The notes under the pieces were generated by a model. It was not told the origin of the DNA. It ran no database searches and saw only the letters and a list, made by a program, of their open reading frames with translations. The position numbers and the translations under genes were made by a program. Shown one piece after another: positions 13,990-60,680 of a stretch of 64,000 nucleotides of DNA. This DNA comes from Chloroflexota bacterium (GTDB taxonomy: Bacteria > Chloroflexota > Limnocylindria > Limnocylindrales > CSP1-4). Location of the stretch: the NCBI GenBank assembly GCA_034435355.1, contig DAOTXE010000019.1, positions 9,026 to 73,025 on the forward strand, read 5' to 3'. The first letter of the stretch is position 1; every line of letters begins with the position of its first letter.

Positions 13990-15236
<1,247 letters not shown>

Positions 15237-15240
<4 letters not shown>

Positions 15241-16427
15241 TCTCGCCGGCGGAGGACGCTATCCGCGCAGAGATCGTCGCGCACGGTCCGATTCCGTTTG
15301 CGCGTTTCATGGCGCTCGCGCTGGGTCATCCCTCCGGTGGCTACTACGCAGGGCCACGGGCGCGACCGACTCGCCGCGGCGACTTCCTCACCGCGCCGGA
15401 GCTCCACCCGATCTTTGGCGCGGCGCTGGCACGGCAGCTGGCGGAGGCATGGAATCGTCTGGGCCGGCCCGACCCGTTCACGCTCGTCGAGTACGGGGCG
15501 GGCGCCGGGACGCTGGCCCTGGCGGTCCTCGCCGGTCTCCGCGACGATCGCTCGCCGCTCGCCGATGCCCTGGTGTATGCACCGATCGAGCTGAACACAC
15601 ACCGCCTGACCGAGCTGCACGAGCGGGCGGCGGCGACCGGCCTGCCCGTCGTCGCGGCGCCCGTGGCGCCGCCCGGAGCCGCGCCGGCGCCGGCTCCGGT
15701 CCAGGGTGCCGTGCTGGCCAACGAGTTCCTCGATGCGCTCCCCGTCCACGCGGTCGAGATCCGGGGCGGCGAGCCCCGTGAAGTCCACGTCGAGGTCGCG
15801 GGCGACGGCGCCCTCGTCGAGATCCTCATGCCTGCGTCCACTCCTGCGATCGCCGTCCGGCTCGACGCGCTCGCCGCGTCCGGCGTCACGTTCGCGGAAG
15901 GACAGCGGGCGGAGCTCTGCCTCGCGCTCGACGGCTGGGTCGCCGAAGTGGCGCTGTCCCTCGCGGCGGGGATCGTGCTCGTGATCGACTACGGCGCGCC
16001 GGCGCCCGAGCTCTACGGCCCGCGACGCTGCGCCGGCTCGCTGATGACGTACCGCGGCCACGTCGCCGACGGCTCGCCCGACGCGCCATACCGCGACGTC
16101 GGCGAGCGTGACATCACGGCCCACGTCGACACCACGACGCTGGAGCGGCTCCTGGCTGCGGCCGGCTTCGACGTCCTCGGAGACACGACCCAGGCCGAGC
16201 TGCTGGCGGGCTGCGGGCTGGACGACCTCCTCGAACGCGAACGCTGTCGATCGAGCGACGCGGCCTCGGCGCTGCTCCTGCGGAGCGCGGTCATGCGGCT
16301 GCTGGACCCGCGCCACCTCGGCGGCTTCCGGGCGGTGCTCGCGGGACGCGGGATGCCGGCCGGGCCGCCGCTTCGCGGCCTTGCCTGGCGGATGCCGGCC
16401 GGACGACCGGCGCCCCCGATGCGCTGA
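15237..16427 (+). CDS. class I SAM-dependent methyltransferase, MidA/NDUFAF7 (DUF185, COG1565) family
   Basis: IPFARFMALALGHPSGGYYA...GDFLTAPELHPIFGAALARQLAEAW...LVEYGAGAGTLALAVL...ANEFLDALPVH matches the MidA family. GTG overlaps the upstream stop (GTGA). Confidence 0.75.
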
Positions 16428-16659: not shown

Positions 16660-17016
16660 ATGGAAGGGATCTGGTACGTCGTCGGGTTTGTCGTGGCCGG
16701 CGTCTCGTTCGTGTTCCTGACGATCGGGCTGTCGTGGCTGATCAGCCACCGCACTCGCGGGAGCCGGGGTAAGGGCCTCCCCTACGAGAGCGGGATCGAC
16801 ACTTACGGGGACACCCACGGGCGCTTCGGCGTCTCGTACTACCTGTACGCCCTCCTCTTCGTCGCCTTCGACATCGAGGTGATCTTCATCTTCCTGTGGG
16901 CGCTGGTGATCCGGGACGCGATCCCGGGCATCCTGAGCTCGATGTTCCTGTTCGTCGGGATCCTCCTCCTGGGCCTTGCCTACGCGTGGCGGAAAGGCGT
17001 GCTCACGTGGCGCTGA
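16660..17016 (+). CDS. nuoA: NADH-quinone oxidoreductase subunit A
   Basis: ...[51 protein letters not shown]. Confidence 0.9.
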
Positions 17017-17750
17017 CGGAGCGCGGCAAGCCGAACCGTGACCTGGCCGTTTCGGCCGCACCGGCCCGGGACCTGCCCGCGCCGGCGGCGTCGCCGGACG
17101 ACGCGCTGGTCGAGGCGATCGTCGTGCCGAATGCACTCTGGCGGCCCGAGGACCCGCTCGGATACGGCGGCGGCGCGCTGCGCGACGACCCGCGCCTCGA
17201 GATGCGGCGCTACGACGAGTCCGGCGAGGGCCGCCGCGACGATGCGCGCTGGGCTGCGCTGGACATCGTGCCCACCAAGGCCGACTACGTGCTGGACCTG
17301 ATCCGCATGAACAGCCTCTGGCCGCTGCTGTCGGGCCTGGCCTGTTGCGCGATCGAGATGATGTCGACCGCGACCAGCCGCCACGACATCGATCGCTGGG
17401 GGATGTTCCCGTTCCGCGCTTCCCCGCGCCAGGCGGACGTGCTCATCGTGGCGGGCACGCTCACGACGAAGATGGCCGAGCCGCTGGTCCGGCTGTGGGC
17501 AGAGATGCCCGAGCCGAAGTGGTGCGTCGCGATGGGCGACTGCACCTGCTCGGGCGGGCGCTACAAGCGCAGCTACAGCACGGTCCAGGGGATCGACCGG
17601 GTCCTCCCGGTGGACGTCTACGTCCCCGGCTGCCCGCCCCGCCCGGAGGGCCTGATCTACGGGATGATGAAGCTCCAGCAGCTCGTCAAGGAGCGCCGCG
17701 GCCACTGGGCAGAGCGCGCGATCGGCCCCACCGTCCCGGACCAGGTCTGA
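17007..17750 (+). CDS. nuoB: NADH-quinone oxidoreductase subunit B (N2 cluster)
   Basis: [17 protein letters not shown]...[10 protein letters not shown]...VPGCPPRPE, so the N2 ligand motifs are intact. The start GTG 17007 has a GGAAAGG RBS and overlaps the nuoA stop. An alternative ATG at 17202 gives a 182-aa product. Confidence 0.85.
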
Positions 17751-17753
17751 CCG

Positions 17754-18305
17754 ATGGATCGTGCCTTCCGGGTCCGCCTCGAGCGAACGTTCGGGGACCT
17801 CCTGACCGGGCCCGTCCGCCAGCGCCACGACGAGACCGAGATGCGCGTCCGCCCCGGCGACGTCCCGGCCGTGATGCGGACCCTCCACGACGACCCAACG
17901 CTCCGCTTCGAATACCTGGGCGACCTCGCCGGCGTGGACACCGGCATGGACTTCCAGGTCGTCTACCACCTCTGGAGCGTCGTGACCCCGGACTGGCTCA
18001 GGGTGATCGCCGATGGGATCCCGCGCGACCAGCCGCGCATCCCCTCGATCACGTTCCTGTGGAAGGGCGCCGAGTGGATGGAGCGCGAGGCGTACGACAT
18101 GTTCGGCCTCGTTTTCGAGGGCAATCGCGACCTGCGCCGGATCTACCTCCCGGACGACTTCGTGAGCTTCCCGCTCCGCAAGGACTTCCACCTCCCGGAC
18201 GACGCGTCGCGCTCGCCCGGCGGCGGGGTGCGCCCGATGGAGGGCGCCGCCACGCCGGCCGACGCCGCGGAGCGCACCGTGCGCCGCACGGCCACGGCCA
18301 GGTAG
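17754..18305 (+). CDS. nuoC: NADH-quinone oxidoreductase subunit C (30 kDa)
   Basis: FEYLGDLAGVD...VVYHLWS...ITFLWKGAEWMEREAYDMFGLVFEGN. Confidence 0.9.
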   Translation: MDRAFRVRLERTFGDLLTGPVRQRHDETEMRVRPGDVPAVMRTLHDDPTLRFEYLGDLAGVDTGMDFQVVYHLWSVVTPDWLRVIADGIPRDQPRIPSITFLWKGAEWMEREAYDMFGLVFEGNRDLRRIYLPDDFVSFPLRKDFHLPDDASRSPGGGVRPMEGAATPADAAERTVRRTATAR

Positions 18306-18319
18306 CGCAGGGGACGCCG

Positions 18320-19534
18320 ATGACAACCCCGACTCGGCCCAGCCTCGACGATCCGGCCCTGGCCATCCCGCTCGACCATCCCGGGATCTTCGAGCCGATC
18401 CCCGTGGCTCGCACCGAGCGCCAGCAGGAGTTCTACGACCTCCGCGACGGCGAGATGCTCCTGAACATGGGACCGCAGCACCCGTCCACGCACGGCGTCC
18501 TGCGCGTGGTCCTCAAGATCTCGGGCGAGCAGGTGGTGGACCTGGACCCGGTCCTTGGCTACCTCCACCGCGGGGTCGAGAAGATCGCCGAGAACTCCGA
18601 CTTCCACCACATCATCAGCCAGCTCGACCCGCTCGAGTACATCAGCTCCCTCTTCTGCGAGTGGAGCCCGGTGATGTCCTTCGAGAAGCTCCTCGACGTC
18701 CAGGTCCCGCGACGGGCGGAGTACATCCGGGTCCTGACGGCCGAGCTGAACCGGATCGCCAGCCACATGCTCTTCCTGGGCTGGTACGCCCTGGACCTGG
18801 GCGGGATCACGCCGATCCTGTGGAGCTTCGCCGAGCGCGACGAGATCATGGAGATGCTCGCCGCGGTCACCGGCGCGAAGCTCCTCTTCAACTACTTCCG
18901 GATCGGTGGCGTCAACGGCGACCTGAACCACGAGTTCATGAGCCGCCTCGGCGACTGGATGAGCCGGGCGGGAACCCAGCTAGAGGCCGGGATGGGCCTC
19001 CTCAACGAGAACGAGATCTTCGTCCGGCGCGCGCGCGGGCTCGGCGTCCTCGACCGCGAGACCGCCCTCCGCATGTGCACCACGGGGCCGAACCTGCGGG
19101 CGTCCGGGGTCCCCTTCGACATCCGGCGCGCGCACCCGTACAGCGTCTACCCGGAGCTGGAGTTCGACATCCCGACCCGCAACGAGGGCGACTCCCTCGC
19201 GCGCTACCTGCTCCGCATGGACGAGGTCCGCCAGAGCCTCCGGATCATCGACCAGTGCCTGCACCAGATGCCCGACGGTCCCGTCATGGCGCGCCAGCCG
19301 CGCCTCCTGCGACCGCGCCCGGGCCGGGCCTACAGCGCGGTCGAGGGACCCCGCGGGCAGTACGCCTGCTACGCCATCAGCGACGGGACCGACCAGCCGT
19401 TCCGCCTGCGGATCCACGACCCGAGCTTCCTGCACCTCCAGCTGGTGGGGCTCCTCATGCCGGGCAACCTGATCGCCGACACGATGGCGATCATGGCGTC
19501 GCTGGACCCGGTCATGGGCGGCGTGGACAAGTGA
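18320..19534 (+). CDS. nuoD: NADH-quinone oxidoreductase subunit D (49 kDa)
   Basis: NMGPQHPSTHGVLRVVLKISGEQVVDLDPVLGYLHRGVEKIAE...RIHDPSFLHLQ. Confidence 0.95.
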   Translation: MTTPTRPSLDDPALAIPLDHPGIFEPIPVARTERQQEFYDLRDGEMLLNMGPQHPSTHGVLRVVLKISGEQVVDLDPVLGYLHRGVEKIAENSDFHHIISQLDPLEYISSLFCEWSPVMSFEKLLDVQVPRRAEYIRVLTAELNRIASHMLFLGWYALDLGGITPILWSFAERDEIMEMLAAVTGAKLLFNYFRIGGVNGDLNHEFMSRLGDWMSRAGTQLEAGMGLLNENEIFVRRARGLGVLDRETALRMCTTGPNLRASGVPFDIRRAHPYSVYPELEFDIPTRNEGDSLARYLLRMDEVRQSLRIIDQCLHQMPDGPVMARQPRLLRPRPGRAYSAVEGPRGQYACYAISDGTDQPFRLRIHDPSFLHLQLVGLLMPGNLIADTMAIMASLDPVMGGVDK

Positions 19535-19544
19535 GGGCCGCGGC

Positions 19545-20882
19545 GTGGTGAGCGCCTACTGGAGCCGCCTCTCGCTGGGCTCGCGGGCGTTCCTCGTGGT
19601 CGTCCCGGCCCTGCTCGTGGTGGGCGGGCTCCTCGCCGTCGCCGTCGCCCTGTTCCTGGGGCCGGTGCTGGACTTCATCAACGCGAACCTGCCCCTGGGC
19701 CGCTTCGTGCTGGCGGCCACGGCGCTCATCGTGGTCACGATCCCGATCGCGTTCCTGATCATCTTCATGGAGCTGAAGGTGATCGCCGCGATGAACCTGC
19801 GGGTCGGGCCCGACCGCGTCGGGCCGTACGGCACGTTCATGTCCGTGGTCCACGGCCTCAAGGTCCTCTCCAAGGAGGACTTCACGCCGCTGGGCGTCGA
19901 CGTCCCGATCTTCACCCTGGCGCCGATCGTCGTGTTCGCCTCGATCCCGCTGACGCTCCTGGTGATCCCGTTTGCGCCCGGGCTGTACGGCCAGGACTTC
20001 AACCTTGCCCTGCTCTACTTCTTCGCGATCGGCGGGATGAGCGTGGTGGGCCTGATGATGGCCGGCTGGGCGAGCTTCAACAAGTACAGCCTGCTCGGCG
20101 CGCTGCGGGCCGCCGCCCAGGCGATCAGCTACGAGCTCCCCCTGACGCTCTCCGTGGTCGGGATCATCATCCTGGCCGGGACGATGAGCCTGAACTCCAT
20201 CGTCGGCCAGCAGGCGGGATCGCTCTTCGACTGGAACATCTGGAAGCAGCCGCTCGGCTTCATCATCTTCTTCATCGCTGCCACGGCCGAGGCGAACCGG
20301 ACGCCGCTGGACATGACCGAGGCGGACCAGGAGCTCGTCGCCGGCTTCGCCACCGAGTATTCCGGCATGCGCTTCGGCTTCTTCTTCTTCGCCGAGTACG
20401 TCAACGTGTTCGTCGTCTCGGCGCTCACCACGGTCCTCTTCTTCGGCGGCTGGAACGCCCCGTTCAACTGGCCGTGGCCCGTCGCGATCAGCCTGGACCC
20501 GGGTGGCCTCGGGCTCGGCCTCATCTTCCTGATCGTCCTCGCCCCCGTCCTGGGCACGATCGTCCTGGGCCTGCCGTTCTGGCTCCTGTCGAGCCGGGTG
20601 AGCACGCTGCGGGCGCTGGTGGCCGGCTTCGTCCTGTTCAACCTGCTGATCATCGGGGCATTTCTGGGCTGGGCCTTCATCAGTGCCGCCTGGGTCTCGG
20701 GCCTGGTCTGGATGATGCTCAAGACCTTCGTCTTCGTCTTCATCTTCGTCCAGATGCGCGGGACGCTTCCGCGCGTGCGCGTCGACCAGCTGATGAGCTT
20801 CGCCTGGAAGTGGCTCCTGCCGGCAGCGCTCCTGAACATCTTCGTGACGGCGACCGCCGTCGTGATCGTGGCGAACCGGTGA
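19545..20882 (+). CDS. nuoH: NADH-quinone oxidoreductase subunit H (ND1)
   Basis: MELKVIAAMNLRVGPDRVGPYG...YELPLTLSVVG...EYSGMRFGFFFFAEY. GTG start with a GAGGG RBS. Confidence 0.95.
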   Translation: MVSAYWSRLSLGSRAFLVVVPALLVVGGLLAVAVALFLGPVLDFINANLPLGRFVLAATALIVVTIPIAFLIIFMELKVIAAMNLRVGPDRVGPYGTFMSVVHGLKVLSKEDFTPLGVDVPIFTLAPIVVFASIPLTLLVIPFAPGLYGQDFNLALLYFFAIGGMSVVGLMMAGWASFNKYSLLGALRAAAQAISYELPLTLSVVGIIILAGTMSLNSIVGQQAGSLFDWNIWKQPLGFIIFFIAATAEANRTPLDMTEADQELVAGFATEYSGMRFGFFFFAEYVNVFVVSALTTVLFFGGWNAPFNWPWPVAISLDPGGLGLGLIFLIVLAPVLGTIVLGLPFWLLSSRVSTLRALVAGFVLFNLLIIGAFLGWAFISAAWVSGLVWMMLKTFVFVFIFVQMRGTLPRVRVDQLMSFAWKWLLPAALLNIFVTATAVVIVANR

Positions 20883-20892
20883 GGGTGCGGCG

Positions 20893-21726
20893 ATGAGCTT
20901 CGTGCCCGGGATGGGGATCCTCAGGGGGATGGCGCTGACCCTGCGGCGCTTCTTCGCACCCAAGGTGACGATCCGCTACCCGGAGGTTCCGGCGGACATC
21001 GCGGTGAAGTACCGCGGCCGTCTGCAGCTGCTCTACGACGAGCACGGCACGCTCAAGTGCGAGACCTGCTTCCAGTGCGCCCAGGCGTGCCCCATCGAGT
21101 GCATCGACATGGGAGGAAGCGATACGAAGGGCCGCTACGCCGTCCACTGGGGCGCCTCGGAGACCTACGGCGAGCGACGGGAGGAGGCAGCCCTCCGGCG
21201 CTCCGGCCGCGAGGTGCCGGACCCGACCTACACCCACTTCGAGGCGATCGACGTCGCCGCGGTGGACCGGATCCTCGAGAACCACGAGTACGACCCGCAC
21301 CGGATGCTCTCGATCCTGGAGGCGATCCAGGCCGAGTTCGGCCACCTTCCCGTGGCGGCGCTCAAGCAGGTGAGCTTCACCACCGGCTCGTGGTACGCGA
21401 TGATCTACGGCACCGCCACCTACTACCGGCACTTCCGGTTCGAGAAGCCCGTCGAGCAGGTCGCGGTCTGTCGCTGCACGGCCTGCCTCATGCATGGCGG
21501 CGGGCGACTCGCGGACGGGATCGCGGACGGCCTCCGGACGGGGCTCGGGCGGGTCACGCCGGACGGCCGGATCCAGCTGGCCTGGCTCCCGACCCACCCC
21601 GCCGGCGCCGCCGCGCCCCTCGTCGCGCTCGACGGCGAGCCACAGCCGGAGGTGACGCCGGCCAACGCCACCGCGTGGGCCCAGGCGCTCGCCGGGGAGC
21701 ACCCCGCGACCCGGACGATCCACTGA
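20893..21726 (+). CDS. fused NuoI-like (N-terminal, single CxxCxxCxxxCP motif) / NuoE-like (C-terminal, thioredoxin-like, partial Cys set) protein - degenerate Fe-S subunits of the nuo operon
   Basis: N-terminus ILRGMALTLRRFFAPKVTIRYPEVP...YRGRLQL...CETCFQCAQACPIECI is NuoI/Nqo9-like, but the second cluster motif is replaced by ASETYGERREEAAL. C-terminus LSILEAIQAEFGHLPVAALKQVSFTTGSWYAMIYGTATYYRHFRFEK...VAVCRCTACLMHGGGRLADGI is NuoE/Nqo2-like and lacks the distal Cys pair. Confidence 0.8.
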   Translation: MSFVPGMGILRGMALTLRRFFAPKVTIRYPEVPADIAVKYRGRLQLLYDEHGTLKCETCFQCAQACPIECIDMGGSDTKGRYAVHWGASETYGERREEAALRRSGREVPDPTYTHFEAIDVAAVDRILENHEYDPHRMLSILEAIQAEFGHLPVAALKQVSFTTGSWYAMIYGTATYYRHFRFEKPVEQVAVCRCTACLMHGGGRLADGIADGLRTGLGRVTPDGRIQLAWLPTHPAGAAAPLVALDGEPQPEVTPANATAWAQALAGEHPATRTIH

Positions 21727-21730
21727 GCCG

Positions 21731-23080
21731 ATGACCACGATCCTCCCGACCCCCGCCGCCTGGCCGCACCCGCTCCTCGGGGATGCCCCGTCGGCGGACC
21801 CGGCCGACCTGGATGCCGCGGTTCGCGCCGGGGCCTTCGCGGGGCTCGCTCGCGCGCTCAACGACCTGGGCCCCACCCTGAGCACCGTCGCGATCGCCGA
21901 ATCCGGCCTCCGGGGACGGGGCGGCGCCGGTTACCCGGCCGCCGACAAGTGGCGCGCCGTCGCCGCGGCGGCGGAGGGCATCCGCTACGCGGTGGCGAAC
22001 GGCTACGAGGCCGACCCGGCCGGGGGAACCAACCATCACCTGATGACCGCCCGTCCGTACGCGATCGTGGAGGGCCTCGCGATCGCCGCGCTCGCGGTCG
22101 GCGCGGAGGAGGCGATCCTGGCGGTCCGCGCGGAGTACGCCGACGCGGTGGCCGCGCTCGAGCTCGCGGTTGCCGAGGCGGGCGAGGCCGGGTACCTCGG
22201 CGAGGACGTGCTCGGCTCGGGGCGCACGCTCCGGATGACGGTCCGGGCCGTGCAGGGCGCCTACATGCTGGGCGAGGAGACGGTCCTTCTCAAGGCGCTC
22301 GAGGGCCGGCGCGGGCAGCCCGAACAGCGGCCCCCGTACCCGTCCGAGCGCGGGCTGTGGGGCCGGCCGACGCTCGTCCACAACGTCGCGACGCTCGCGG
22401 CGATTCCCTGGATCATGGTCCACGGCGCGGACGCGTTCCGCTCGACCGGCGATCCGGGCGCGCCGGGCACGGTCCTCGTCTCGGTCAGCGGGGCCGTGGC
22501 GACCCCCGGCATCCTGGAGGTGCCGACGGGGACGCCGCTCGCGGACATCGTCGCGCTCGCAGGCGGCGTCGCGGGAGGGCGCCCGCTCAAGGCGATCCTG
22601 GTCGGCGGGCCGTCGGGCGGGCTCCTCCCGGCCGACCTCGCGGCCACGCCCTACACGTTCGGGGCGCTCCGGGCGGCCGGCGCGCATGTCGGGTCGGGAT
22701 CGGTCGTCGTGGCGGACGACCGGAGCTGCGTCCTCGACCTCGCCCGCCTGCTGACCCGCTATTGCGCGGACGAGGCGTGCGGCAAGACGATCCCCTGCCG
22801 GGTCGGGCTGCGCCGCCTCTCCGAGATCGGCGAGCGCATGGTCGCTGGCTTCGCCCGGCCGACCGACCCGCAGCTCCTGGCCGACCTCGCAGCGGACATC
22901 GCGGGCAGCGCGTTGTGCGACCACGAGCGGCTGGCCACGGGCCCGCTCGCGACCGCGATGCGATACTTCGGGGCCGAGGTCGACGCCCACATCCTGCGGG
23001 GCGTCTGCCCGGCCGGCGTCTGTGCCCCCATCGGGACCGCCGTCGCCGCCGGTCCCGCAACTACTGCGCACGGAGGATAG
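21731..23080 (+). CDS. nuoF: NuoF-like (51 kDa NADH/FMN-binding) subunit with altered N3 cluster motif
   Basis: GLRGRGGAGYPAADKW and GAYMLGEETVLLKALEGRRGQPEQRPPYPSERGLWGRPTLVHNVATL are present. The N3 motif reads EACGKTIPCRVG, with C-x2-T-x2-C in place of C-x2-C-x2-C. Confidence 0.85.
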   Translation: MTTILPTPAAWPHPLLGDAPSADPADLDAAVRAGAFAGLARALNDLGPTLSTVAIAESGLRGRGGAGYPAADKWRAVAAAAEGIRYAVANGYEADPAGGTNHHLMTARPYAIVEGLAIAALAVGAEEAILAVRAEYADAVAALELAVAEAGEAGYLGEDVLGSGRTLRMTVRAVQGAYMLGEETVLLKALEGRRGQPEQRPPYPSERGLWGRPTLVHNVATLAAIPWIMVHGADAFRSTGDPGAPGTVLVSVSGAVATPGILEVPTGTPLADIVALAGGVAGGRPLKAILVGGPSGGLLPADLAATPYTFGALRAAGAHVGSGSVVVADDRSCVLDLARLLTRYCADEACGKTIPCRVGLRRLSEIGERMVAGFARPTDPQLLADLAADIAGSALCDHERLATGPLATAMRYFGAEVDAHILRGVCPAGVCAPIGTAVAAGPATTAHGG

Positions 23081-23091
23081 GCACGACCGCG

Positions 23092-25731
23092 ATGGCCGAC
23101 CTCGTCTCCCGGCCCCCCGACCTCCTCCCCGCCGCGCGGCCGCAGCCGATGGTCGATTCGCTCGCCGAGCGGCTGCTCCGGACCCAGTCGCCGCAGCGCC
23201 CGCAGTCCACCCCGCTGATCCGCCTGGAGGTGGACGGGCGGGTCGTCGAGGGTCGCGAGGGGCAGACGATCCTCGAGGTCTGCCGGGACAACGGGATCGA
23301 GATCCCAACCCTCTGCTACGAGCCCAAGCTGCCCGGCTTCGGGGCCTGTCGGATGTGTGTGGTCGAGGTGGCGGGCGAGGAGCACCCGCCGATCTCGTGC
23401 TCGCGGCTGGCCGAGGCGGGGATGGTGGTCCAGACCCAGACCGAGGCGGTCCGTCGCCTGCGGCGCACGAACCTGGAGCTGATCTTCTCCGACCACAACG
23501 CCTACTGCCTGCCGCCGTGCCAGAACAAGTGCCCGAGCCACATAGACATTCCGGGCTTTCTCAAGGCGAATGCGGAGGGCGAGTTCCGCGAGTCGGCCCG
23601 GATCTTCAAGCGGACCATCCCGTTCCCCTCGATCCTCGGCCGGGTCTGCCCGGCGCCGTGCGAGGAGCACTGCCGCCGCGACGAGGTGGACGAGGCGATC
23701 GCGATCCGGGACAGCCACCGCTACGCCGGCGACCAGGTGCTCCTCGCGATGCGCGAGGAGGGCGTCGATCCGCCCCTCCCGTTCGAGCTCCAGCCGAAGT
23801 CGGGCAAGCGGGTGGCGGTCATCGGCTCGGGCCCGGCCGGCGCGTCGGCCGCCTACTACCTCCTGATCGCCGGCCACGAGGTGACGATCTACGAGCGCGA
23901 CGAGGCGCCCGGGGGGATGCTCCGCTACGGCATCCCGGAGTACCGGCTGCCGAAGGAGCGGGTCCTCGACCCCGAGTACGAGAGCATCACGCGGCTCGGC
24001 GGGCGCTTCATCTGCAACCAGGCGCTCGGGCGCGACTTCAGCCTGGACGACCTCCAGAACCAGGGCTACGACGCGGTCGTCGTCGCGATCGGCTGCTACG
24101 ACACGAACAAGCTCGGGATCCCGGGGGAGGACGCGGACGGCGTCATCGACGGCCTCGAGTACCTCAAGGTCGCCACGCTCGGCCTGCTCTACCCGGGTCA
24201 CGCGGGGAAGCGGGTGGTCGTCGTCGGGGGCGGCTTCACGTCGATGGACTGCTCGCGCACGTCGGTGCGCCAGGGTGCGTCGGAGGTGACGCTCGTCTAC
24301 CGCCGCGACATGAAGGACATGCCGGCCTCGGGCGAGGTCCATGAGGCGATCGAGGAAGGCGTCACGACGATCTTCCAGGCCGGCCCGACCCGCGTCATCG
24401 CCGACGATGCGGGCAGGGTGACCGGCGTGGAGTTCATCCGGATGCAGCTCGGTGCGCCCGACGCCTCCGGCCGGCGCCGCCCGGAGCCCGCCCCCGGCAC
24501 CGAGTTCGTGATCGCGTGCGACCGGGTCCTGCTCGCCATCGGCCAGGGGCCGGACCTGAGCTGGATCGGCGCCGGCTCCGACGGCGTCGAGGCCACCCGG
24601 AACCGGCGCCTGCGGGCCGACGCGGTCACCTTCGTGACGCCGCGGCCGGGCGTCTTCGGGACGGGCGACGTCCGCAACGGCGCGCAGACGGTGGTCCAGG
24701 CAGTCGCCGACGGACGCCGCGCCTCGTACGCCGTCGACGCGTTTCTGAAGGGCCTCGACCTCGGGGAGATCAGGACCCGCCAGACGCTGGCCGAGCCGCA
24801 GCCGGAGTTCCTCAGCATCGTGCCGTTCACCTCCGAGGTGAAGGCGCCCCGCCATCGGCTGCGGAGCATGCCGGCCGAGGAGCGCCGCACAAGCTACGTG
24901 GAGTACGAGATCCCGTACACCCCGAGCGAGGCCGTCGCGGAATCGACGCGCTGCCTCCAGTGCACCTGCGAGGCGATCGGATTCTGCGACCTGCGTCGGC
25001 TGGGGATCGAGTACGGGACCACCCTGCGGACACTGGAGCCGCAGAACAACCAGGGGGCCGGCTTCCGGAGCGTGACCGAGAACCGCTTCACGGGAGCCAA
25101 CCACGACTACGTCCGCGACGACAGCCACGCCTTCATCCTCCGCGAGCCGTCGCGCTGCATCGACTGCGGCCGCTGCGCGAACGTGTGCGCCGAGGTCGTC
25201 GGGGCGGCCTGCTACGACTTCATGCGGATCGGCTTCGACACGCTCGTCACCACGCCGCTCGACATGAGCCTCAACGACACGCCGTGCGTCTCGTGCGGTC
25301 GCTGCGCCGAGACGTGCCCCACCGGCGCGCTCATGCCCAAGCCCCGGATCCTCGAGAAGTACGAGGTGGACGAGAGCCGCTGCATCCTGTGCGGGATCTG
25401 CGTCGACGCCTGCCCCTACGATGCGCTCCGCTGCGGACCCGACTTCGAGCTGGCCCACGTCAGCCGCGAGGAGCCCATGATCGACCTGATCGCGATCGCC
25501 GCGGTGGACCGCGAGACCGAGATGACCTACGTCCACAGGGAGCGCGACTGGCTGGAGCGGGCGATCGCCTCGGGGCGCGACGTCGGGCCGCGTCAACTGC
25601 CCGTGCTTCCGGCCTCGCTCGCCGAGCGGGGCGGCGGGCACGGCGGGGGTCGCGCGAGCGACCCGGACAACGGCCACAATGGCACCGGCGCGGCCGGCGG
25701 CGCCTTCCCGGAGCACGGACGCAACCGGTAG
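23092..25731 (+). CDS. chimeric Fe-S flavoprotein: NuoG N-terminal-like [2Fe-2S] domain + GltD-type NAD(P)H/FAD oxidoreductase + C-terminal 2x[4Fe-4S] ferredoxin domain (occupies nuoG position)
   Basis: [19 protein letters not shown]...[16 protein letters not shown] matches NuoG N1b. [25 protein letters not shown]...[57 protein letters not shown] and [25 protein letters not shown] match GltD. The C-terminus carries [23 protein letters not shown] and [12 protein letters not shown]. Confidence 0.85.
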
Positions 25732-25799
25732 ACCCAGCGCGAGGGCGGGCGGAAAGCCGCCCGGTCGACGCGCAGCGCAGGCTGGAGGGAGAGGAACAG

Positions 25800-26333
25800 G
25801 TGGCCATACCGGATACCATCCCGGTCCTCGGGATCAGCTGGAGCGACGTGCTCTTCCTGGTCCTTGCGGCCGTGATGCTCGGGTCCGCCTTCCTCGTGGT
25901 GACCCTTCGCGACATCATCCGCTGCGGGCTGGCGATGATCGTGGCCTTCGGGGCGCTCGCCGGGATCTACGTGCTGCTCGGCGCGCCGCTGGTGGCCGCC
26001 GCGCAGGTGCTCGTCTACATCGGCGCGATCGCCGTCCTGATCCTCTTCGCGGTCATGCTGACCCAGGCGAAGAACGCGCCCGTCCGGCTCGTCTTCCAGG
26101 CGCAGGCGTTCCCCGCCGCGATCGCCGCCATCGTGCTGGCAGTGCTGATCGCGCTCACGGTAAGCGCGACGGACTGGGGCGCGGCGGCGAAGCGGCTCGC
26201 GACGGCGACGGACGCGCTGGCCCGCCTGCTGTTCACGTCGTACGTGCTGCCGTTCGAGGTCGTGAGCGTGCTCCTGCTGATGGCCGTGATCGGGGGCATC
26301 TTCCTGGCGAAGCGCGAGGGCCGGGACGCGTGA
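25800..26333 (+). CDS. nuoJ: NADH-quinone oxidoreductase subunit J
   Basis: A hydrophobic ND6-like protein. GTG start with a GGAGGGAGAGG RBS. Confidence 0.9.
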
Positions 26334-26641
26334 GCCAGAGCCTCGACGCCTACCTCAGCGTGTCCGGGATCCTGTTCTCGATCGGCATGTTCGGGTTCCT
26401 GGCCCGGCGCAACGCGATCAGCATGCTGATGTCCATCGAGCTGATGCTGAACGCGGTGAACCTGACGATCGTCGCCTTCGGGGCCTTCATTCCCGCCCTC
26501 AACGGAACCGCCTCCATCATCGCCCTCGTCGTGATGGCGGTCGCCGCGGCCGAGGCCACGGTCGGCCTCGCGATCGTCATGGCCATCTACCGGAACCGCC
26601 GCACACCGCTGGTCGACGAGTACGACAGCATGCGCCAGTAG
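26330..26641 (+). CDS. nuoK: NADH-quinone oxidoreductase subunit K
   Basis: [24 protein letters not shown]...[20 protein letters not shown] overlap with nuoJ. Confidence 0.9.
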
Positions 26642-26663
26642 CCGCGGGAATCGGGCCGCCTCC

Positions 26664-28676
<2,013 letters not shown>

Positions 28677-28687
28677 GCAGGCAGACC

Positions 28688-30238
28688 ATGGACGCCACGT
28701 CCTTCCCGATCCTCAGCGTGATCATCTTCCTGCCCCTCGTGGGGGCGGTGGTGGTCGGGCTCATTCCGCGGCGCAACCTGGCCGCGATCCGCGGGACCGC
28801 GCTGCTCTTCGCCCTCGCGACGTGGGTCGTCAGCCTGTGGCTGGTCCTCGGCTTCCTGCCGGGACGCCAGCTGGTGGCATCCGCGGCGGGCTCGTTCGAG
28901 TTCGTGCAGACGATCGACTGGATCCCGGTCTTCGGGATCCAGTACAAGGTCGGCGCCGACGGCCTCTCGGTGGCGCTCGTAGTCCTGACCACGACACTGT
29001 CGTGGATCTCGATCCTGGCCAGCTTCTCGCCGATCAAGGAGCGGGTGAAGGAGTACATGATCTCCTTCCTCGTCCTCGAGGTCGGGATGCTGGGCGTGTT
29101 CCTGGCCCTGGACCTGTTCCTGTTCTACATCTTCTGGGAGGTGGTCCTCGTCCCGATGTACCTGATCATCGGGATCTGGGGCGGCGCGAACCGGATCTAC
29201 GCGACGATCAAGTTCGTCCTCTACACGCTCGTCGGGTCGCTCCTGATGCTGGTGGCGATCCTCGCCACGGCGTTCACCTACCAGCACGCAACCGGGTCGT
29301 GGGTCGGTGCGTTCGACCTGGAGAAGCTCGCCGGAGCCGGCTTCGACGGCACGTTCCAGGTCTTCGCCTTCGCCGCGTTCGCGCTGGCCTTCGCGATCAA
29401 GGTCCCGATGTTCCCCTTCCACACCTGGCTGCCGGACGCGCACGTCGAGGCACCGACGGCCGGCTCGGTGATCCTGGCAGGCGTGCTGCTCAAGCTCGGC
29501 GCGTACGGCTTCATCCGGTTCGCCATCCCGCTCTTCCCGCACGGCGCCCACGTGTTCGCGCCGCTCATCATCGCCCTGTCGCTCATCGCGATCATCTACG
29601 GCGCGATCGTGGCCATGGTCCAGCCCGACCTCAAGAAGCTCGTCGCCTACAGCTCCGTGAGCCACATGGGATTCGTGACCCTGGGCATCTTCATCTTCCA
29701 GGCCCAGGGCCTCCAGGGCGCGATCCTCCAGATGGTCAACCACGGCATCATCACGGGCGCCCTCTTCCTGCTCGTCGGCGTCATCTACGAGCGAACCCAC
29801 GACCGGACGATCGCGAAGATGGGCGGCCTGGGCGCGGTGACGCCGGTCTACTCGGCCGCCCTGGGGTTCTTCGTGTTCGCGTCGGTCGGCCTGCCCGGCC
29901 TGGCCGGGTTCGTCGGCGAGTTCCTCGTCTTCCAGGGCGCGTTCGCATTCAACCCGTGGGTCGGCGTGTCCGCCGCGTTCGTCATGATCTTCGCGGCCGG
30001 GTACCTGCTCTGGATGCTCCAGCGCGTGTGCTTCGGCCAGGTTTCGGAGTTCCTGTCGAACCTCGGTCACCACCTGACCGACATGCGCCCCACGGAGATC
30101 CTGACGCTCGCCCCGCTGGGCGCCCTGACGGTGGTCCTGGGCCTCTATCCCGCCCTCGTCCTGGACCTCATCGCGGGCCCGGTCAGGGCGGTCCTGGCCG
30201 CGGTCGACCCATCGGTCGCGATGGCTGTCGGCCGCTGA
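28688..30238 (+). CDS. nuoM: NADH-quinone oxidoreductase subunit M
   Basis: FYIFWEVVLVPMYLIIGIWGG...FPFHTWLPDAHVEAPTAGSVILAGVLLKLG. Confidence 0.9.
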   Translation: MDATSFPILSVIIFLPLVGAVVVGLIPRRNLAAIRGTALLFALATWVVSLWLVLGFLPGRQLVASAAGSFEFVQTIDWIPVFGIQYKVGADGLSVALVVLTTTLSWISILASFSPIKERVKEYMISFLVLEVGMLGVFLALDLFLFYIFWEVVLVPMYLIIGIWGGANRIYATIKFVLYTLVGSLLMLVAILATAFTYQHATGSWVGAFDLEKLAGAGFDGTFQVFAFAAFALAFAIKVPMFPFHTWLPDAHVEAPTAGSVILAGVLLKLGAYGFIRFAIPLFPHGAHVFAPLIIALSLIAIIYGAIVAMVQPDLKKLVAYSSVSHMGFVTLGIFIFQAQGLQGAILQMVNHGIITGALFLLVGVIYERTHDRTIAKMGGLGAVTPVYSAALGFFVFASVGLPGLAGFVGEFLVFQGAFAFNPWVGVSAAFVMIFAAGYLLWMLQRVCFGQVSEFLSNLGHHLTDMRPTEILTLAPLGALTVVLGLYPALVLDLIAGPVRAVLAAVDPSVAMAVGR

Positions 30239-30254
30239 CGGGAGCTGCCTGACG

Positions 30255-31736
30255 ATGACCTGGTCCGATTTCGCCACCGTCGCCCCCTTCGCGGCCGCCG
30301 TGGCCGTGGCGGCGCTCGTCGTCGTGGCCGACATCGTGCGGCCCGGAAACCGGCACCTGGCGCTGGGTGTTGCCCTGGCGGGCCTCGTCGGCGTCGGTGC
30401 GCTCACCCTGTGGACCGGCCAGTCGCCGGGGACCGCCTTCGGCGGCATGTACAAGGTCGACAACCTGACGACGTTCCTCGACACGATCTTCGTCGCGATC
30501 GCGGCGATCACCTGCCTCTTCGCGCCCGACTACCTCGAGCCGCGCGGGCTTCCGGTCGCGGAGTTCGCCGCCATCCTCGTGTTCGCGCTGAGCGGCGCGA
30601 TGCTGGTGTCCGCGTCCGCGGACCTCATCGTCCTGTTCGTCGGTCTCGAGCTCATGGTGATCCCGGGCTACCTGCTCGCCGGGTATCACAAGCGCGACGC
30701 GCTCTCCACCGAGGGCGCGATCAAGTACTTCCTGCTCGGCTCGTTCTCGAGCGCGATCTTCCTCTTCGGGCTCGCCTACATCTGGGGCCTGACCGGCTCC
30801 ACCCGGATCGCCGACGTGGCGGCCCGGATCGGCGCGGTCATGGCCGGCCAGGCACCGCTCTCCCCCGGTCTGGCGATGGGCCTGGCCTTCCTCACGACCG
30901 GGGTCGCGTTCAAGATGGCCGCGGTCCCGTTCCACTACTGGACGCCCGACGCGTACCAGGGCTCGCCGACGCCGGTGACCGGCTACCTGTCGGTGGGCCC
31001 GAAGGTGGGGGCGTTCGCGGTGGTGCTGCGGGTCTTCGCCGAGGCCCTCCTCCCGCTTCGCCAGGAGTGGGTGATCGTCTTCTTCGTCCTCGCGGCGCTG
31101 ACCATGACGCTTGGCAACCTCGTGGCGCTCACGCAGGACAACGTCAAGCGGATGCTCGCCTACTCGTCGATCGCCCACACCGGGTACATGCTGGTGGGCC
31201 TCGCGGCGTACGCGGCAGGGGTGCTGCAGGGCCTCGAGGGCCTCCTCTTCTACGGCGCCGCCTACGCGTTCATGAACCTGGGGGCGTTCGCCGTGATCGC
31301 CGCCCTCCAGAAGCGCCCCGGGGTCAGCAGCCGGCTGGAGACGTTCGCGGGGCTCGGGCGGCGTGAGCCGGCGCTCGGTCTCCTGATGGTCCTCTTCCTG
31401 CTCTCCCTGACCGGGATCCCACCGACGGCCGGCTTCTTCGCCAAGGCGTACGTGATCCTCGCCGCCGTGCAGGCCGGGGGATGGCTCACGGCCCTCGCCG
31501 TCATCGCCGTCCTCAACGCGGCCGCGGCCGCGTTCTACTACCTGCGGGTCATCGTCTACATGTACATGCGCGATCCGGCGGGCGAGCCGGCCCCCGTGGG
31601 CCACGGCGCGCTGCTCCGCCTGGGGCTCGCCATCACGGCAGTCATGACGGTGGTCCTGGGCCTCTTCCCGGGGCTCATCCTGACGAGCGTCTCGTCGGCG
31701 GCGCAGGCAATCGGGGTCGCTGTCGCCATCCATTAG
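30255..31736 (+). CDS. nuoN: NADH-quinone oxidoreductase subunit N
   Basis: VGLELMVIPGYLLAGY...AVPFHYWTPDAYQGSPTPVTGYLS. Confidence 0.9.
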   Translation: MTWSDFATVAPFAAAVAVAALVVVADIVRPGNRHLALGVALAGLVGVGALTLWTGQSPGTAFGGMYKVDNLTTFLDTIFVAIAAITCLFAPDYLEPRGLPVAEFAAILVFALSGAMLVSASADLIVLFVGLELMVIPGYLLAGYHKRDALSTEGAIKYFLLGSFSSAIFLFGLAYIWGLTGSTRIADVAARIGAVMAGQAPLSPGLAMGLAFLTTGVAFKMAAVPFHYWTPDAYQGSPTPVTGYLSVGPKVGAFAVVLRVFAEALLPLRQEWVIVFFVLAALTMTLGNLVALTQDNVKRMLAYSSIAHTGYMLVGLAAYAAGVLQGLEGLLFYGAAYAFMNLGAFAVIAALQKRPGVSSRLETFAGLGRREPALGLLMVLFLLSLTGIPPTAGFFAKAYVILAAVQAGGWLTALAVIAVLNAAAAAFYYLRVIVYMYMRDPAGEPAPVGHGALLRLGLAITAVMTVVLGLFPGLILTSVSSAAQAIGVAVAIH

Positions 31737-57377: not shown

Positions 57378-58496
57378 TTACGACGTCGTCCGGACCGGCA
57401 TGACGACGTGCGTGTAGTCGCGCCCGTCCGCCGGCCGGAAGACGCCTGGCGCGAGCGGCCCGTTCAGCTCGATCACGAAGCGGTCCGTGTCGACGTTCTG
57501 CAGGGCGTCGCTCAGGTAGCGCGCGTTGAAGGCGATCGTCGTCCCGTCGCCCTCGATGGTGGCGTCGACGAGGCCGCGGTGGTCGCCGACCTCGGCAGCG
57601 GCGGCCACCAGCACCTGGGCCGCTCCCTCCGGGGCAATCTGCATGCGCACGATGTTGGCGGACGAGCTCGCGATGTACCCGGCGAGGCGCACGGCCTTGA
57701 GGAGGTCGTCCCGGTCCACCTCCACCCGTGTCGCATGCGACGCCGGCAGGACCTGCTGGTAGTTGGGGAACTGGCCGTCGATGAGCCGGCTGACGACGTC
57801 CACGCCCTCGACGTGGAAGAGGATCTGGTTCTTCTGCGGCGAGAGGATCAGCTCGACGGGGTCGTCCGTGTCGGCGAGGACGCGGGCGAGCTCGGCATAC
57901 GAGCGGGCCGGGACCACGATGCTCGTCTCCTCGACGGCGTCGAGGGTCGGGATCGTGGTGATGGCGATCCGGTAGTTGTCCGCCGCGGCCAGGGTGAGGC
58001 GATCGCCCTCGAAGCGGGTGAGCACCCCGGTCAGGATCGGGCGCGCTTCATCGGACGCGGCCGCAAAGGTCACCTCGGCGAGCGCGCGGCGGAGTACCCG
58101 CTGGCTGATCCGCGTGGTGGGCCGCTCACCCGCGGCAGGGATGGCCGGGAACTCCTCGGCGTCGATGCCCCGCAGCGTGGTCTCGAAATGGCCGGCCCTG
58201 ATGTACAGGTGGTCGCCGCCCCGGAGCTCGAGATCAACGCGCTCCTGCGACGGGAGGCCGCCGATGATCTCGGCAAACAGGCGGGCCGGCACGGTGATGG
58301 CGCCATCGGTCTCGATCCGGCCCGGCACCCAGTAGGTGATCCCGATCTCGAGGTTGGTCGCGGTGAGCTTGAGACCGGCGTCCTCCGTCCGCAGCAGGAC
58401 GTTGGCCAGGACCGGCAGCGTGCTGCGCCCGGAGACGGCGTGGCCGACGACGGAGAGGCCGCGGGCGAGGTTCTCGCAGATGACCGAGAGGTTCAC
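57378..58496 (-). CDS. dnaN: DNA polymerase III beta sliding clamp
   Basis: Three-domain clamp, MNLSVICENLARGLSVVGHAVS...RLTLAAADNYR. GTG start. Confidence 0.9.
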   Translation of the reverse strand: MNLSVICENLARGLSVVGHAVSGRSTLPVLANVLLRTEDAGLKLTATNLEIGITYWVPGRIETDGAITVPARLFAEIIGGLPSQERVDLELRGGDHLYIRAGHFETTLRGIDAEEFPAIPAAGERPTTRISQRVLRRALAEVTFAAASDEARPILTGVLTRFEGDRLTLAAADNYRIAITTIPTLDAVEETSIVVPARSYAELARVLADTDDPVELILSPQKNQILFHVEGVDVVSRLIDGQFPNYQQVLPASHATRVEVDRDDLLKAVRLAGYIASSSANIVRMQIAPEGAAQVLVAAAAEVGDHRGLVDATIEGDGTTIAFNARYLSDALQNVDTDRFVIELNGPLAPGVFRPADGRDYTHVVMPVRTTS

Positions 58497-58948
58497 AGGC
58501 TCGTCACTCCGGGTGATCGGAACCGGGGCGGGCGGGGTCTGTCAGCCGGGCCCGGAGGCAACCGATTCGTGGTTTGGTGCATCCTCGCATATCGAGTCAT
58601 CACCGTCGTCATCATGGTGTTGATGCCGTGGATGAACGTGCGCGCTCGTGCGCAGGGCCGCGGTGCACGGAGGCCGCGCCGAGGTGGACGAAGCCCCGGG
58701 AGCGGTGTGTTCGCATGAGCCGACAGCGTGGACGAGCTGTCGCCGCCGATCCAGGATGTGCCGACGCGCGCGGTCGCCTGCCCTGATCGTCCCCCGCGAG
58801 AGGCGTCGCCGCGAGCCGCATTTTCCACACGCGGGGAGGGTTTTCCACTGAATTCGACCGTTTTTCCACACGCAGGCGGCGCGGCGGGCGCTGTCACCGG
58901 CATGCCGAGCGCCGCCGGGCCCGGCGGGATCCGTCGCGCAGCCGGTCG
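58497..58948. other. candidate oriC in dnaA-dnaN intergenic region: phased DnaA-box-like 9-mers and locally AT-enriched stretch
   Basis: TTTTCCACA at 58821, TTTTCCACT at 58841 and TTTTCCACA at 58862 are in the same orientation at about 20-21 bp spacing. Opposite-strand T(T/C)CGTCCAC-like sites sit at about 58627, 58683 and 58726. The segment 58578-58626 is AT-enriched relative to the genome. Confidence 0.55.
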
Positions 58949-60406: not shown

Positions 60407-60560
60407 AGAAGGAGCCTCTTCCAGCCTTGCTGGAGGAGCGCTCCCGGGCCGGCCCCGGGGCTCACCCGGGTCTGCCCGCAGGCGTCCCGGCGACCGTGGG
60501 CCGGGGCATGGTAGCACCGCCCGGGTCGGCCCCGCAAGGCGATCCGGCACCCAAAGCGCG

Positions 60561-60577
60561 ATACTCCCAGGGAGTAT
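60561..60577. repeat. perfect palindrome ATACTCCCAGGGAGTAT followed by TTTT in dnaA/rpmH divergent control region
   Basis: Read directly from the sequence. It is AT-rich relative to its surroundings. Confidence 0.7.
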
Positions 60578-60650
60578 TTTAACGCGGCCGCACGTGGGCC
60601 GCTCGAGCCGCGGCCGGGCACCTGGCGGCACTATCGAGGCGCAGCTTCGT

Positions 60651-60680
60651 TTGACACTTCCGAGGGCGCGTTCCTATAAT
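60651..60680 (+). promoter_or_regulatory. near-consensus sigma70-type promoter TTGACA-18-TATAAT for rpmH operon
   Basis: TTGACA at 60651-60656 and TATAAT at 60675-60680, about 110 nt upstream of the rpmH ATG. Confidence 0.5.

Follow-up and report, generated by a model that had tools for sequence, protein, structure and literature searches.

In a 64,000-nucleotide stretch of DNA (the window) from contig DAOTXE010000019.1 of a soil Chloroflexota bacterium of the order Limnocylindrales, an operon for respiratory complex I (nuo) contains a gene at positions 23092-25731 whose 879-residue product, called the target in the following, does not correspond to any ordinary complex I subunit. Based on the comparisons presented here, we assign the target to the NfnA/StnC family, i.e., the BfuA subunits of the Nfn-Bfu type, from which it differs by lacking the formate dehydrogenase (Fdh)-like domain and ending in the C-terminal half of NuoI. 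The other, N-terminal half forms a fusion with an NfnC-like protein (the partner) encoded in the same operon. We consider it probable that an NADPH-oxidising module of the Nfn/Stn type (Bfu family), with the target as its large subunit, serves as the electron-input module of a proton-pumping complex I.

An NfnA/StnC-type protein that ends in half of NuoI

In phmmer searches against the PDB, target residues 42-774 aligned with residues 3-699 of the 1178-residue NfnA from Caldicellulosiruptor saccharolyticus (Csac; 9bov_A, E = 1e-163), and strong matches were also obtained to StnC from Sporomusa ovata (Sov; 8oh5_C, E = 9e-141) and to NfnA from Thermococcus sibiricus (9n5u_A, E = 3e-139). The alignment ends where the inactive Fdh-like domain of NfnA starts, and the NuoI-like tail follows at this point. 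BfuA subunits of the Nfn-Bfu and Stn enzymes are known to consist of a NuoG-like domain bearing an inserted GltD/NfnL-like NADPH domain (PMC10482914, PMC11829005). An initial annotation, made from the letters of the DNA without database searches, had described the target as a chimera in the nuoG position. Its architecture is instead that of NfnA/StnC (BfuA), its neighbours are NfnC- and NfnB-like rather than ordinary NuoE and NuoF, and the gene does not occupy the position of nuoG. The suspicion that two genes might have been misread as one was dispelled, as the open reading frame (ORF) runs without stop or frameshift over all 879 residues behind a GGAGGA Shine-Dalgarno sequence, and the arrangement recurs in 80 related loci.

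The NuoG-like character that had been ascribed to the first ~110 residues applies to most of this segment only. Residues 1-41 form an additional, non-NuoG extension, after which Fer2_4 (Pfam) matched at 43-117 (E = 1.7e-19) and the NuoG profile TIGR01973 (606 positions) matched with its positions 2-99 alone (target 46-144; 90.3 bits versus a cutoff of 470). Within the extension, residues 22-37 (window 23155-23202) constitute a conserved segment without counterpart in solved NfnA, NfnC or NuoI. The switch to a GltD-type fold at the start of the NuoG N5 motif was confirmed by a sub-threshold N5 match at 124-140 (Pfam), a Fer4_20 match at 139-216 (Pfam; 64 bits, cutoff 25.8) and the presence of both Rossmann motifs, GSGPAG for flavin adenine dinucleotide (FAD) and GGGFTSMD ... 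VYRRD for NADPH. Pyr_redox_2 (Pfam) covered residues 240-541 (E = 2.6e-32, 113 bits, cutoff 26.1), and this module aligned in phmmer with NfnL (5jca_L, E = 4e-76) and GltD (2vdc_G, E = 1e-69); TIGR01318 reached 316 bits, under its full-length cutoff of 483. The two cluster sites of the module are C139/C143/C147 and C186/C190/C194. At the FAD-proximal [4Fe-4S] cluster, the conserved K173 aligned with the lysine of the Csac and Sov proteins, and R278 as well as the YRR 2'-phosphate motif are likewise conserved. The NCBIfam model PRK12814 ('putative NADPH-dependent glutamate synthase small subunit', 657 residues) covers target residues 43-702, but with 561 bits against a curated cutoff of 916, and it has no NuoI-like tail. 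A role as glutamate synthase small subunit was rejected, as gltB is absent nearby and the gene lies inside nuo. An AlphaFold2 model of the target (24-sequence alignment) reached a predicted local distance difference test score (pLDDT) of 75-95 at residues 230-560 and was confident for the [2Fe-2S] and FAD/NADPH domains only.

The following NuoG/HydA-type region holds the ligands C621/C624/C626/C632 and a dicluster ferredoxin-like pair, C689/C692/C695/C699 and C732/C735/C738/C742. It matched Fer4_Nqo3 weakly (Pfam; 682-747) and positions 2-75 of the [FeFe]-hydrogenase profile TIGR02512, and [4Fe-4S] motifs run up to residue 780. Among the three CxxCxxCxxxC motifs between residues 689 and 774, the initial annotation had seen a NuoI-like dicluster plus one extra motif. 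The assignment has to be changed: C689-C699 and C732-C742 are part of the NuoG/HydA-type domain that NfnA has as well, and C764-C774, followed by DFELA, is the only one derived from NuoI. The molybdopterin-like domains of NuoG are missing, as had been noted initially; neither Pfam nor NCBIfam returned a molybdopterin-oxidoreductase domain in the target, and the protein ends ~100 residues past the last Fe-S motif. Its final residues 836-879 (window 25597-25728) form a Gly-rich tail with 34% median identity and a length that varies among orthologues.

NuoI in two pieces

Residues 1-76 of the partner correspond to the N-terminal half of NuoI and include the motif CETCFQCAQACP with C56/C59/C62/C66. 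In the PDB search, partner residues 9-81 matched the NuoI chains 8e9g_I (residues 7-79), 8qby_I (17-82) and Thermus thermophilus Nqo9 (7-71), and the target tail matched residues 93-142 of 8qby_I (E = 8e-13). With the NuoI profile TIGR01971 (121 positions, curated cutoff 113 bits), the partner gave 47.7 bits over positions 1-64 and target residues 752-797 gave 53.3 bits over positions 71-116, both below the cutoff. When the two pieces were joined in silico, one match over positions 1-116 was obtained (99.2 bits), and the joined sequence formed a single continuous alignment to NuoI/TYKY/NDUFS8 structures (E about 3e-21), covering residues 22-131 of E. coli NuoI and 23-145 of the plant subunit. 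As judged from these alignments, the two NuoI pieces complement each other, together restoring the full NuoI profile, and the junction is located in the loop between the two cysteine motifs.

Both halves are conserved at 82-86% median identity. Since the sequence and the cysteines are strongly conserved, pointing to purifying selection, this argues that both NuoI halves are functional. The upstream NuoI-like ORF had been regarded as degenerate at first, yet it is a highly conserved N-terminal half of NuoI. The related idea that the target C-terminus supplies the N6a and N6b clusters can be kept in part: the C-terminus would help to supply the NuoI function, but it carries only the second half of NuoI.

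Behind its NuoI half, the partner contains a conserved linker of 40 residues (77-116; window 21121-21240; 80% median identity) that has no equivalent in solved NfnA, NfnC or NuoI. This linker and target residues 22-37 may be lineage-specific interface elements.

Conservation of the arrangement in Limnocylindria

At an identity of 80% or more to the target, more than 120 protein clusters were recovered. It was found in 80 species-representative genomes at 79-94% identity, nearly all of which are labelled Chloroflexota/'Candidatus Limnocylindrales', and wherever a locus among these 80 was of sufficient length, it displayed the gene order nuoC-D-H-[277 aa]-[F-like]-[target]-J-K-L-...-N. Residue conservation was counted over 75-77 orthologues, and identities are given as the median to the window protein for ten operon proteins. 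All Fe-S cysteines of the target, including C764/C767/C770/C774, were conserved at 100%, as were C56/C59/C62/C66 of the partner and, within Limnocylindria, K173, VYRRD and the FAD and NADPH motifs of the target. With 82%, the target showed the highest median identity of the ten proteins, followed by NuoK (81%), NuoD (78%), the NuoI(N)::NfnC-like partner (74%) and NuoH (65%), and the F-like protein was the lowest (63%). Segment 681-750 of the target was 98.6% identical across orthologues. Two fragments with 60-70% identity (P0135 and P0126) were discarded as candidates for intermediate lineages, being fragmented, frameshifted genes on long-read contigs.

Partner subunits of the NfnC and NfnB type

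The three inserted genes form an nfnC-nfnB-nfnA-like cassette in C-B-A order. In the PDB search, partner residues 117-260 were closest to NfnC (9bov_C, E = 2e-16). The full motif for the C1 [2Fe-2S] site of this NfnC-like domain was present in none of 75 Limnocylindria orthologues, and its thioredoxin-like half is only about 10% identical among them.

The F-like protein was closest to NfnB (9bov_B residues 112-527, E = 3e-101) and HydB subunits in the PDB search, and it matched the NuoF family model with E = 1e-103, yet under the curated cutoff. It lacks both the N-terminal thioredoxin-like domain of BfuB and the C-terminal 2x[4Fe-4S] ferredoxin-binding (B3/B4) domain. At the second cysteine position of cluster N3/B1, the orthologues in which the motif could be located carry Thr (59), Ser (12) or Ala (2) and never Cys; the window protein has Thr. 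The flavin-site motif NGDEGDPG reads NGYEADPA in the window and N-G-Y-(G/E)-A-D-P-(A/S) across the clade (Tyr in place of Asp in 72 of 73 sequences, Gly in place of Glu in 48 of 73). Hence, two acidic flavin-site residues are replaced in Limnocylindria relative to the Bfu motif CN(A/G)DEGDPG that is present in NfnB and in the BfuB of Thermoleophilia. GRGGAG, KW (K73-W74), GEET and QPEQRPP are invariant among the F-like orthologues, and three of the four B1 cysteines are kept. The pattern of these changes indicates a remodelling of the F-like subunit, not its decay.

A fuller form of the operon in Thermoleophilia

An exhaustive search of 1.84 billion representative proteins showed that, beyond the Limnocylindria fragments, the nearest relatives of the target are NfnA/StnC-type proteins of 37-47% identity, mostly 1000-1260 residues long and equipped with the Fdh domain. 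One relative of 816 residues (P0136, 45% identical) carries the NuoI-C tail, and its own relatives make up a large clade labelled Thermoleophilia (Actinomycetota). Three Thermoleophilia loci displayed the order nuoA-B-C-D-H-[237-253 aa]-[630-638 aa]-[816-824 aa]-nuoJ-K-L-M-N, with NuoI broken at the same point (TIGR01971 positions 2-66 and 71-117). In these loci, all four [2Fe-2S] cysteines of the NfnC part are intact and the B subunit is a complete BfuB with the N-terminal thioredoxin-like domain, the motifs CNGDEGDPGAFMDR and ESCGKCVPC, and the C-terminal 2x[4Fe-4S] domain. No variation between the two phyla was seen in the target's [2Fe-2S] cysteines C75/C86/C89/C103, in its NuoI-C cysteines or in its NADPH/FAD motifs. 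Because every subunit is 40-52% identical between Limnocylindria and Thermoleophilia, the whole operon including the insert appears to be of one origin in both phyla, the Limnocylindria form being the presumed reduced derivative. Carriers from both groups were recovered from many soil, groundwater and freshwater metagenomes.

Six further NfnA-like relatives of ~800-850 residues (P0134, P0154, P0157, P0160, P0192 and P0215) were rejected as examples of the same architecture, as they enter the Fdh domain and have no NuoI tail. All six stop at '...N(N/S)(I/V)DHCARL' inside the Fdh domain, where the ORF calls were probably ended by a selenocysteine TGA codon. If so, some NfnL-containing BfuA proteins retain a potentially active, selenocysteine-type formate dehydrogenase domain.

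The nuo operon and its surroundings

Positions 16660-31736 (+) form a single tightly packed operon in the order nuoA-B-C-D-H-[NuoI(N)::NfnC-like]-[NfnB/NuoF-like]-[target]-nuoJ-K-L-M-N (Table 1). No separate nuoI, nuoE, nuoF or nuoG was found in the operon or elsewhere in the 64-kb window, and the remainder of the window, which carries core chromosomal genes (lon, clpB, purH, dnaN and dnaA), holds no second nuo gene set. The initial placement of the target inside a nuo operon was thereby upheld; neither in the window nor in the 80 related loci does an nfn operon lie beside a complete nuo operon. The G+C content of the window is ~72%, and long spurious ORFs are common in it.

Table 1 Coordinates of the nuo operon and of the domains of the target in the window.
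Feature	Position	Strand	Basis or content
nuoA	16660-17016	+	position and homology to Oxidored_q4 genes in loci L081/L083
nuoB	about 17007-17750	+	Pfam Oxidored_q6
nuoC	17754-18305	+	Pfam Complex1_30kDa
nuoD	18320-19534	+	Pfam Complex1_49kDa
nuoH	19545-20882	+	Pfam NADHdh
Partner gene, NuoI(N)::NfnC/NuoE-like	20893-21726	+	277 aa
NfnB/NuoF-like flavoprotein core	21731-23080	+	449 aa; Pfam Complex1_51K, SLBB, NADH_4Fe-4S
Target, NfnA/StnC-like::NuoI(C)	23092-25731	+	879 aa
Target: NuoG/HydA-type [2Fe-2S] domain, equivalent to cluster A1/N1b	23215-23466 (aa 42-125)	+	C75, C86, C89, C103
Target: inserted NfnL/GltD-like module	23467-24771 (aa 126-560)	+	two [4Fe-4S] sites, FAD and NADPH Rossmann folds
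Target: NuoG/HydA-type [4Fe-4S] region	24937-25341 (aa 616-750)	+	aligned to matching NfnA 9bov_A region
Target: C-terminal half of NuoI	25342-25491 (aa 751-800)	+	second CxxCxxCxxxCP motif, C764/C767/C770/C774 plus DFELA
nuoJ	25800-26333	+	Pfam Oxidored_q3
nuoK	26330-26641	+	Pfam Oxidored_q2
nuoL	26664-28676	+	Pfam Proton_antipo_M/N/C group
nuoM	28688-30238	+	Pfam Proton_antipo_M/N/C group
nuoN	30255-31736	+	Pfam Proton_antipo_M/N/C group

The cysteines for cluster N2 are readable in the nuoB translation. NuoB shows an apparent N-terminal extension of ~90 residues rich in Pro, Ala and Asp (window ~17007-17270) ahead of the conserved domain; the start codon is uncertain. NuoH comprises 445 residues, compared to 371-375 in the Thermoleophilia operons, and the 298-position Pfam model is stretched over its residues 60-436. 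NuoH thus seems to contain some 70-80 inserted hydrophobic residues, which may form additional transmembrane helices.

Directly 5' of nuoA lies a gene for a Methyltransf_28 (MidA/NDUFAF7-family) S-adenosylmethionine-dependent methyltransferase (14682-16427 (+), Pfam E = 1.6e-45), whose true start is probably near 15237. When complex I is assembled in mitochondria, the NuoD homologue is methylated by NDUFAF7, and for this reason the methyltransferase may be a linked assembly factor. Just 5' of its probable start, the 9-bp unit GGCGCAGAC is repeated in perfect tandem with 5.3 copies (15153-15200), nested in a larger imperfect 18/27-bp repeat region (15127-15221). The genes dnaN and dnaA are located at 57378-60673 (-), ~26-29 kb downstream of the nuo operon, which therefore lies near the chromosomal replication origin.

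Proposed electron path

For the origin of the arrangement, we propose that an nfnC-nfnB-nfnA-type cassette entered nuoI in frame, in the loop between its cysteine motifs, so that both fusion proteins would have arisen at once. The NuoI half would then take the place of the inactive Fdh-like domain borne by the soluble NfnA. In the predicted machine, NADPH would bind to the GltD/NfnL-type Rossmann fold of the target and reduce FAD, from which single electrons would pass via the two GltD-type [4Fe-4S] clusters to the NuoG/HydA-type clusters and on into the NuoI dicluster module (N6a/N6b) built from two chains. N2 in NuoB and then menaquinone would follow as acceptors, and NuoH/J/K/L/M/N would pump protons. 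The clusters of a ferredoxin fold are each ligated by three cysteines of one motif and one of the other, and for this reason both N6a and N6b would bridge the two chains.

Experimental work on the soluble homologues fits this arrangement. NADPH is oxidised by Csac NfnA and S. ovata StnC, with a path from FAD over A7-A6-A3-A2-A1 to the BfuBC core, and a side branch, formed by A2-A4-A5 in Csac NfnA and by clusters C1 and C2 in StnC, runs toward and into the inactive Fdh-like domain, where it dead-ends (PMC11829005, PMC10482914). The first cluster of that domain ends the side branch, and it is this domain that the NuoI half replaces in the target. In NfnABC, the N-terminal domain of NfnC packs on the Fdh-like domain (PMC11829005), i.e., at what is now the position of NuoI, so the fusion of the other NuoI half to the NfnC-like protein fits as well.

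With the B3/B4 domain and the C1 cluster gone and B1 down to three cysteines, bifurcation appears unlikely in Limnocylindria, and we expect the enzyme to behave as a plain NAD(P)H:quinone oxidoreductase that does not bifurcate electrons. NADH may still enter through the remodelled NuoF-like subunit. In the Thermoleophilia form, bifurcation is possible.

Weighing of the explanations

Several observations count against an NADPH-oxidising input module of this design. The score of the joined NuoI, 99.2 bits, falls just short of the TIGR01971 cutoff of 113. AlphaFold2 yielded unusable models for the joined NuoI (single sequence, mean pLDDT 33) and for the Fe-S-rich C-terminal third of the target (residues 613-879, pLDDT ~25), and as no usable model of that region was obtained, the putative two-chain NuoI fold derives from the sequence only. 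The sequences show homology, conserved motifs and a conserved gene order; the cofactors bound, the assembly of the parts, the donor used and the direction in which electrons run are all deduced, and the direction, NADPH oxidation versus NADP+ reduction driven by the proton motive force, is not readable from the genes. The finding of no second complex I covers the 64-kb window. Lastly, the flavin pocket of the F-like protein is altered but strongly conserved, which could mean that NADH is the main donor or acceptor and the NADPH site auxiliary.

The latter point leads to an explanation that we regard as unlikely, namely that NADH is the physiological donor via the NuoF-like subunit with its flavin mononucleotide (FMN), the GltD-like domain being a side port for NADPH/NADH transhydrogenation or redox sensing. 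It would account for the clade-wide retention of GRGGAG, K73-W74, GEET and three of four B1 cysteines and for the match to the NuoF model, though sub-cutoff, and Stn also has NADPH:NAD+ oxidoreductase activity (PMC10482914). However, the F-like protein is the least conserved of the ten proteins compared and the target the most conserved, two acidic flavin-site residues are replaced and one B1 ligand is lost, whereas the target keeps its NADPH/FAD motifs unchanged in two phyla. The same machine might instead run in reverse, with the proton motive force driving electrons from quinol (derived, e.g., from H2, CO or succinate) uphill to NADP+ for biosynthesis. Complex I is reversible, as is well established, and the donor-side chemistry is NADP(H)-specific by motif. 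The soluble homologues of the module also run both ways (PMC10482914). We judge this to be quite unlikely, as nothing in the window is suggestive of lithotrophy; direction cannot be inferred from sequence, and reversal would be a variant of the favoured NADPH-oxidising module rather than a different structure.

An electron-bifurcating or confurcating complex of the 'Nuo-Bfu' type, in which the Bfu core couples the oxidation of NADH (or NADPH) and reduced ferredoxin to quinone reduction, would agree with the similarity of all three inserted proteins to Bfu-family subunits, with the Bfu-specific CPAGVC motif in 65 of 75 F-like orthologues and with the complete BfuB and intact BfuC [2Fe-2S] site of the Thermoleophilia homologues; complexes of this kind, Geobacter-type, were proposed previously (PMC9304861). 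For Limnocylindria we nevertheless hold it to be very unlikely. Neither the window nor any other of the sampled Limnocylindria encodes the ferredoxin-binding B3/B4 domain, C1, which belongs to the bifurcation site proposed as B1-FMN-C1, is missing from 75 of 75 orthologues, and B1 is one cysteine short; deletion of the StnA cluster abolishes bifurcation in Stn (PMC10482914). It is also conceivable that a soluble Nfn-like enzyme is merely encoded within the nuo operon and the NuoI pieces are vestigial, or that the ORF stems from an assembly error or a frameshift. Soluble enzymes are indeed the closest characterised homologues (PMC11829005, PMC10482914), but both NuoI halves have fully conserved cysteines and high median identity, the operon has no other nuoI, and 80 independent assemblies share the arrangement, which a second phylum also has with an identical break point. 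Moreover, deletion of the Fdh-like domain destroys the assembly of soluble Stn (PMC10482914), and this domain is absent here. We consider this last explanation extremely improbable.

Comparison with known enzymes

The target shares with NfnA/StnC the order of [2Fe-2S], NfnL/GltD-like FAD/NADPH and HydA/NuoG-type [4Fe-4S] domains over ~730 residues, at 40-47% identity, as well as NfnC-like and NfnB-like partners in the same C-B-A gene order. In contrast to NfnA/StnC, it has the C-terminal half of NuoI in place of the ~480-residue Fdh/NuoG-like C-terminal domain, is encoded inside a nuo operon and is presumably part of a membrane-bound enzyme instead of a soluble tetramer, and its partners are devoid of the ferredoxin-binding domain and the C1 cluster. 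With canonical complex I (T. thermophilus 4hea, E. coli 7awt) the system has in common a NuoG-type [2Fe-2S] cluster and ferredoxin-like clusters, an FMN domain of the NuoF type, a NuoE fold represented by its N-terminal part, the two cysteine motifs of NuoI together with the DFE signature, and ordinary Q- and P-module genes. It differs from the canonical enzyme in that NuoI resides on two polypeptides, the molybdopterin-type domain of NuoG is absent, a GltD-type NADPH/FAD domain is added, N1a is missing and N3 has three cysteines; furthermore, the E/F/G-like genes are located between nuoH and nuoJ, whereas they lie between nuoD and nuoH canonically.

Schut et al. (2022) predicted a 'Nuo-Bfu' in Deferribacteres, Proteobacteria, Planctomycetes and Nitrospirae, in which BfuABC replaces NuoEFG among 14 subunits A-N (PMC9304861). 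Both systems have a Bfu-family module placed centrally in a nuo operon, where it presumably feeds electrons into a complex I-like enzyme, but here BfuA is Nfn-type, the insertion lies within nuoI after nuoH, and the B3/B4 domain and C1 cluster are lost. The text of PMC9304861 mentions neither NuoI, nor an NfnL/GltD domain in Nuo-Bfu, nor Chloroflexota or Thermoleophilia. In mbx-like operons of Thermotoga and some proteobacteria, a gltD-related flavoprotein stands in place of the NuoI homologue (Degli Esposti 2015, PMC4758237); there, too, a membrane enzyme related to complex I bears a GltD-type NAD(P)H flavoprotein where NuoI would be. Compared by description only, those systems differ in being of the Mbx/Mrp type, with NuoI replaced outright and with neither NuoG/NuoF/NuoE-like parts nor a split NuoI.

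Accordingly, complex I, NfnABC/Stn, Bfu modules within nuo operons and the domain architecture of the target itself are already known. The literature searched, which was incomplete and gives absence of evidence only, contained no description of an Nfn-type NADPH/FAD module as the N-module of complex I or of a NuoI divided over two polypeptides by an operon insertion, and neither arrangement was described in it for Chloroflexota or Thermoleophilia. Complex I-type enzymes are known with NADH, reduced coenzyme F420 (F420H2) or ferredoxin input modules. To our knowledge and as far as the literature searched shows, no complex I fed by NADPH via a GltD/NfnL-type flavoprotein has been described.

Implications

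Taken in full, our proposal is a heteromeric NuoI that arose from an in-frame insertion of a three-gene operon, in which each cluster would be ligated by two polypeptides and which would wire an Nfn-type NADPH dehydrogenase to the quinone module. Two abundant soil lineages, Limnocylindria and part of the Thermoleophilia, would then possess an NADPH-respiring, proton-pumping complex I, possibly the only one, the latter with a fuller, possibly ferredoxin-coupled ancestral form. We put this complete version forward tentatively, somewhat doubtful that all of its parts hold together.

The genes concerned are currently annotated as 'FAD-dependent oxidoreductase', 'formate dehydrogenase major subunit' or 'glutamate synthase beta subunit-like', and with these labels, annotation-based surveys could score carrier genomes as lacking nuoG and nuoI. 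On the evolutionary side, the locus presents an operon that landed inside a gene, with two fusion proteins obliged to rebuild one ferredoxin fold, and the comparison of Thermoleophilia with Limnocylindria makes a step-wise later loss of the bifurcation machinery visible. If the proposal is true, NADPH could be respired, or made by reverse electron flow, without a transhydrogenase, and models of redox balance and energy yield would change for two environmental lineages, Limnocylindria and Thermoleophilia.

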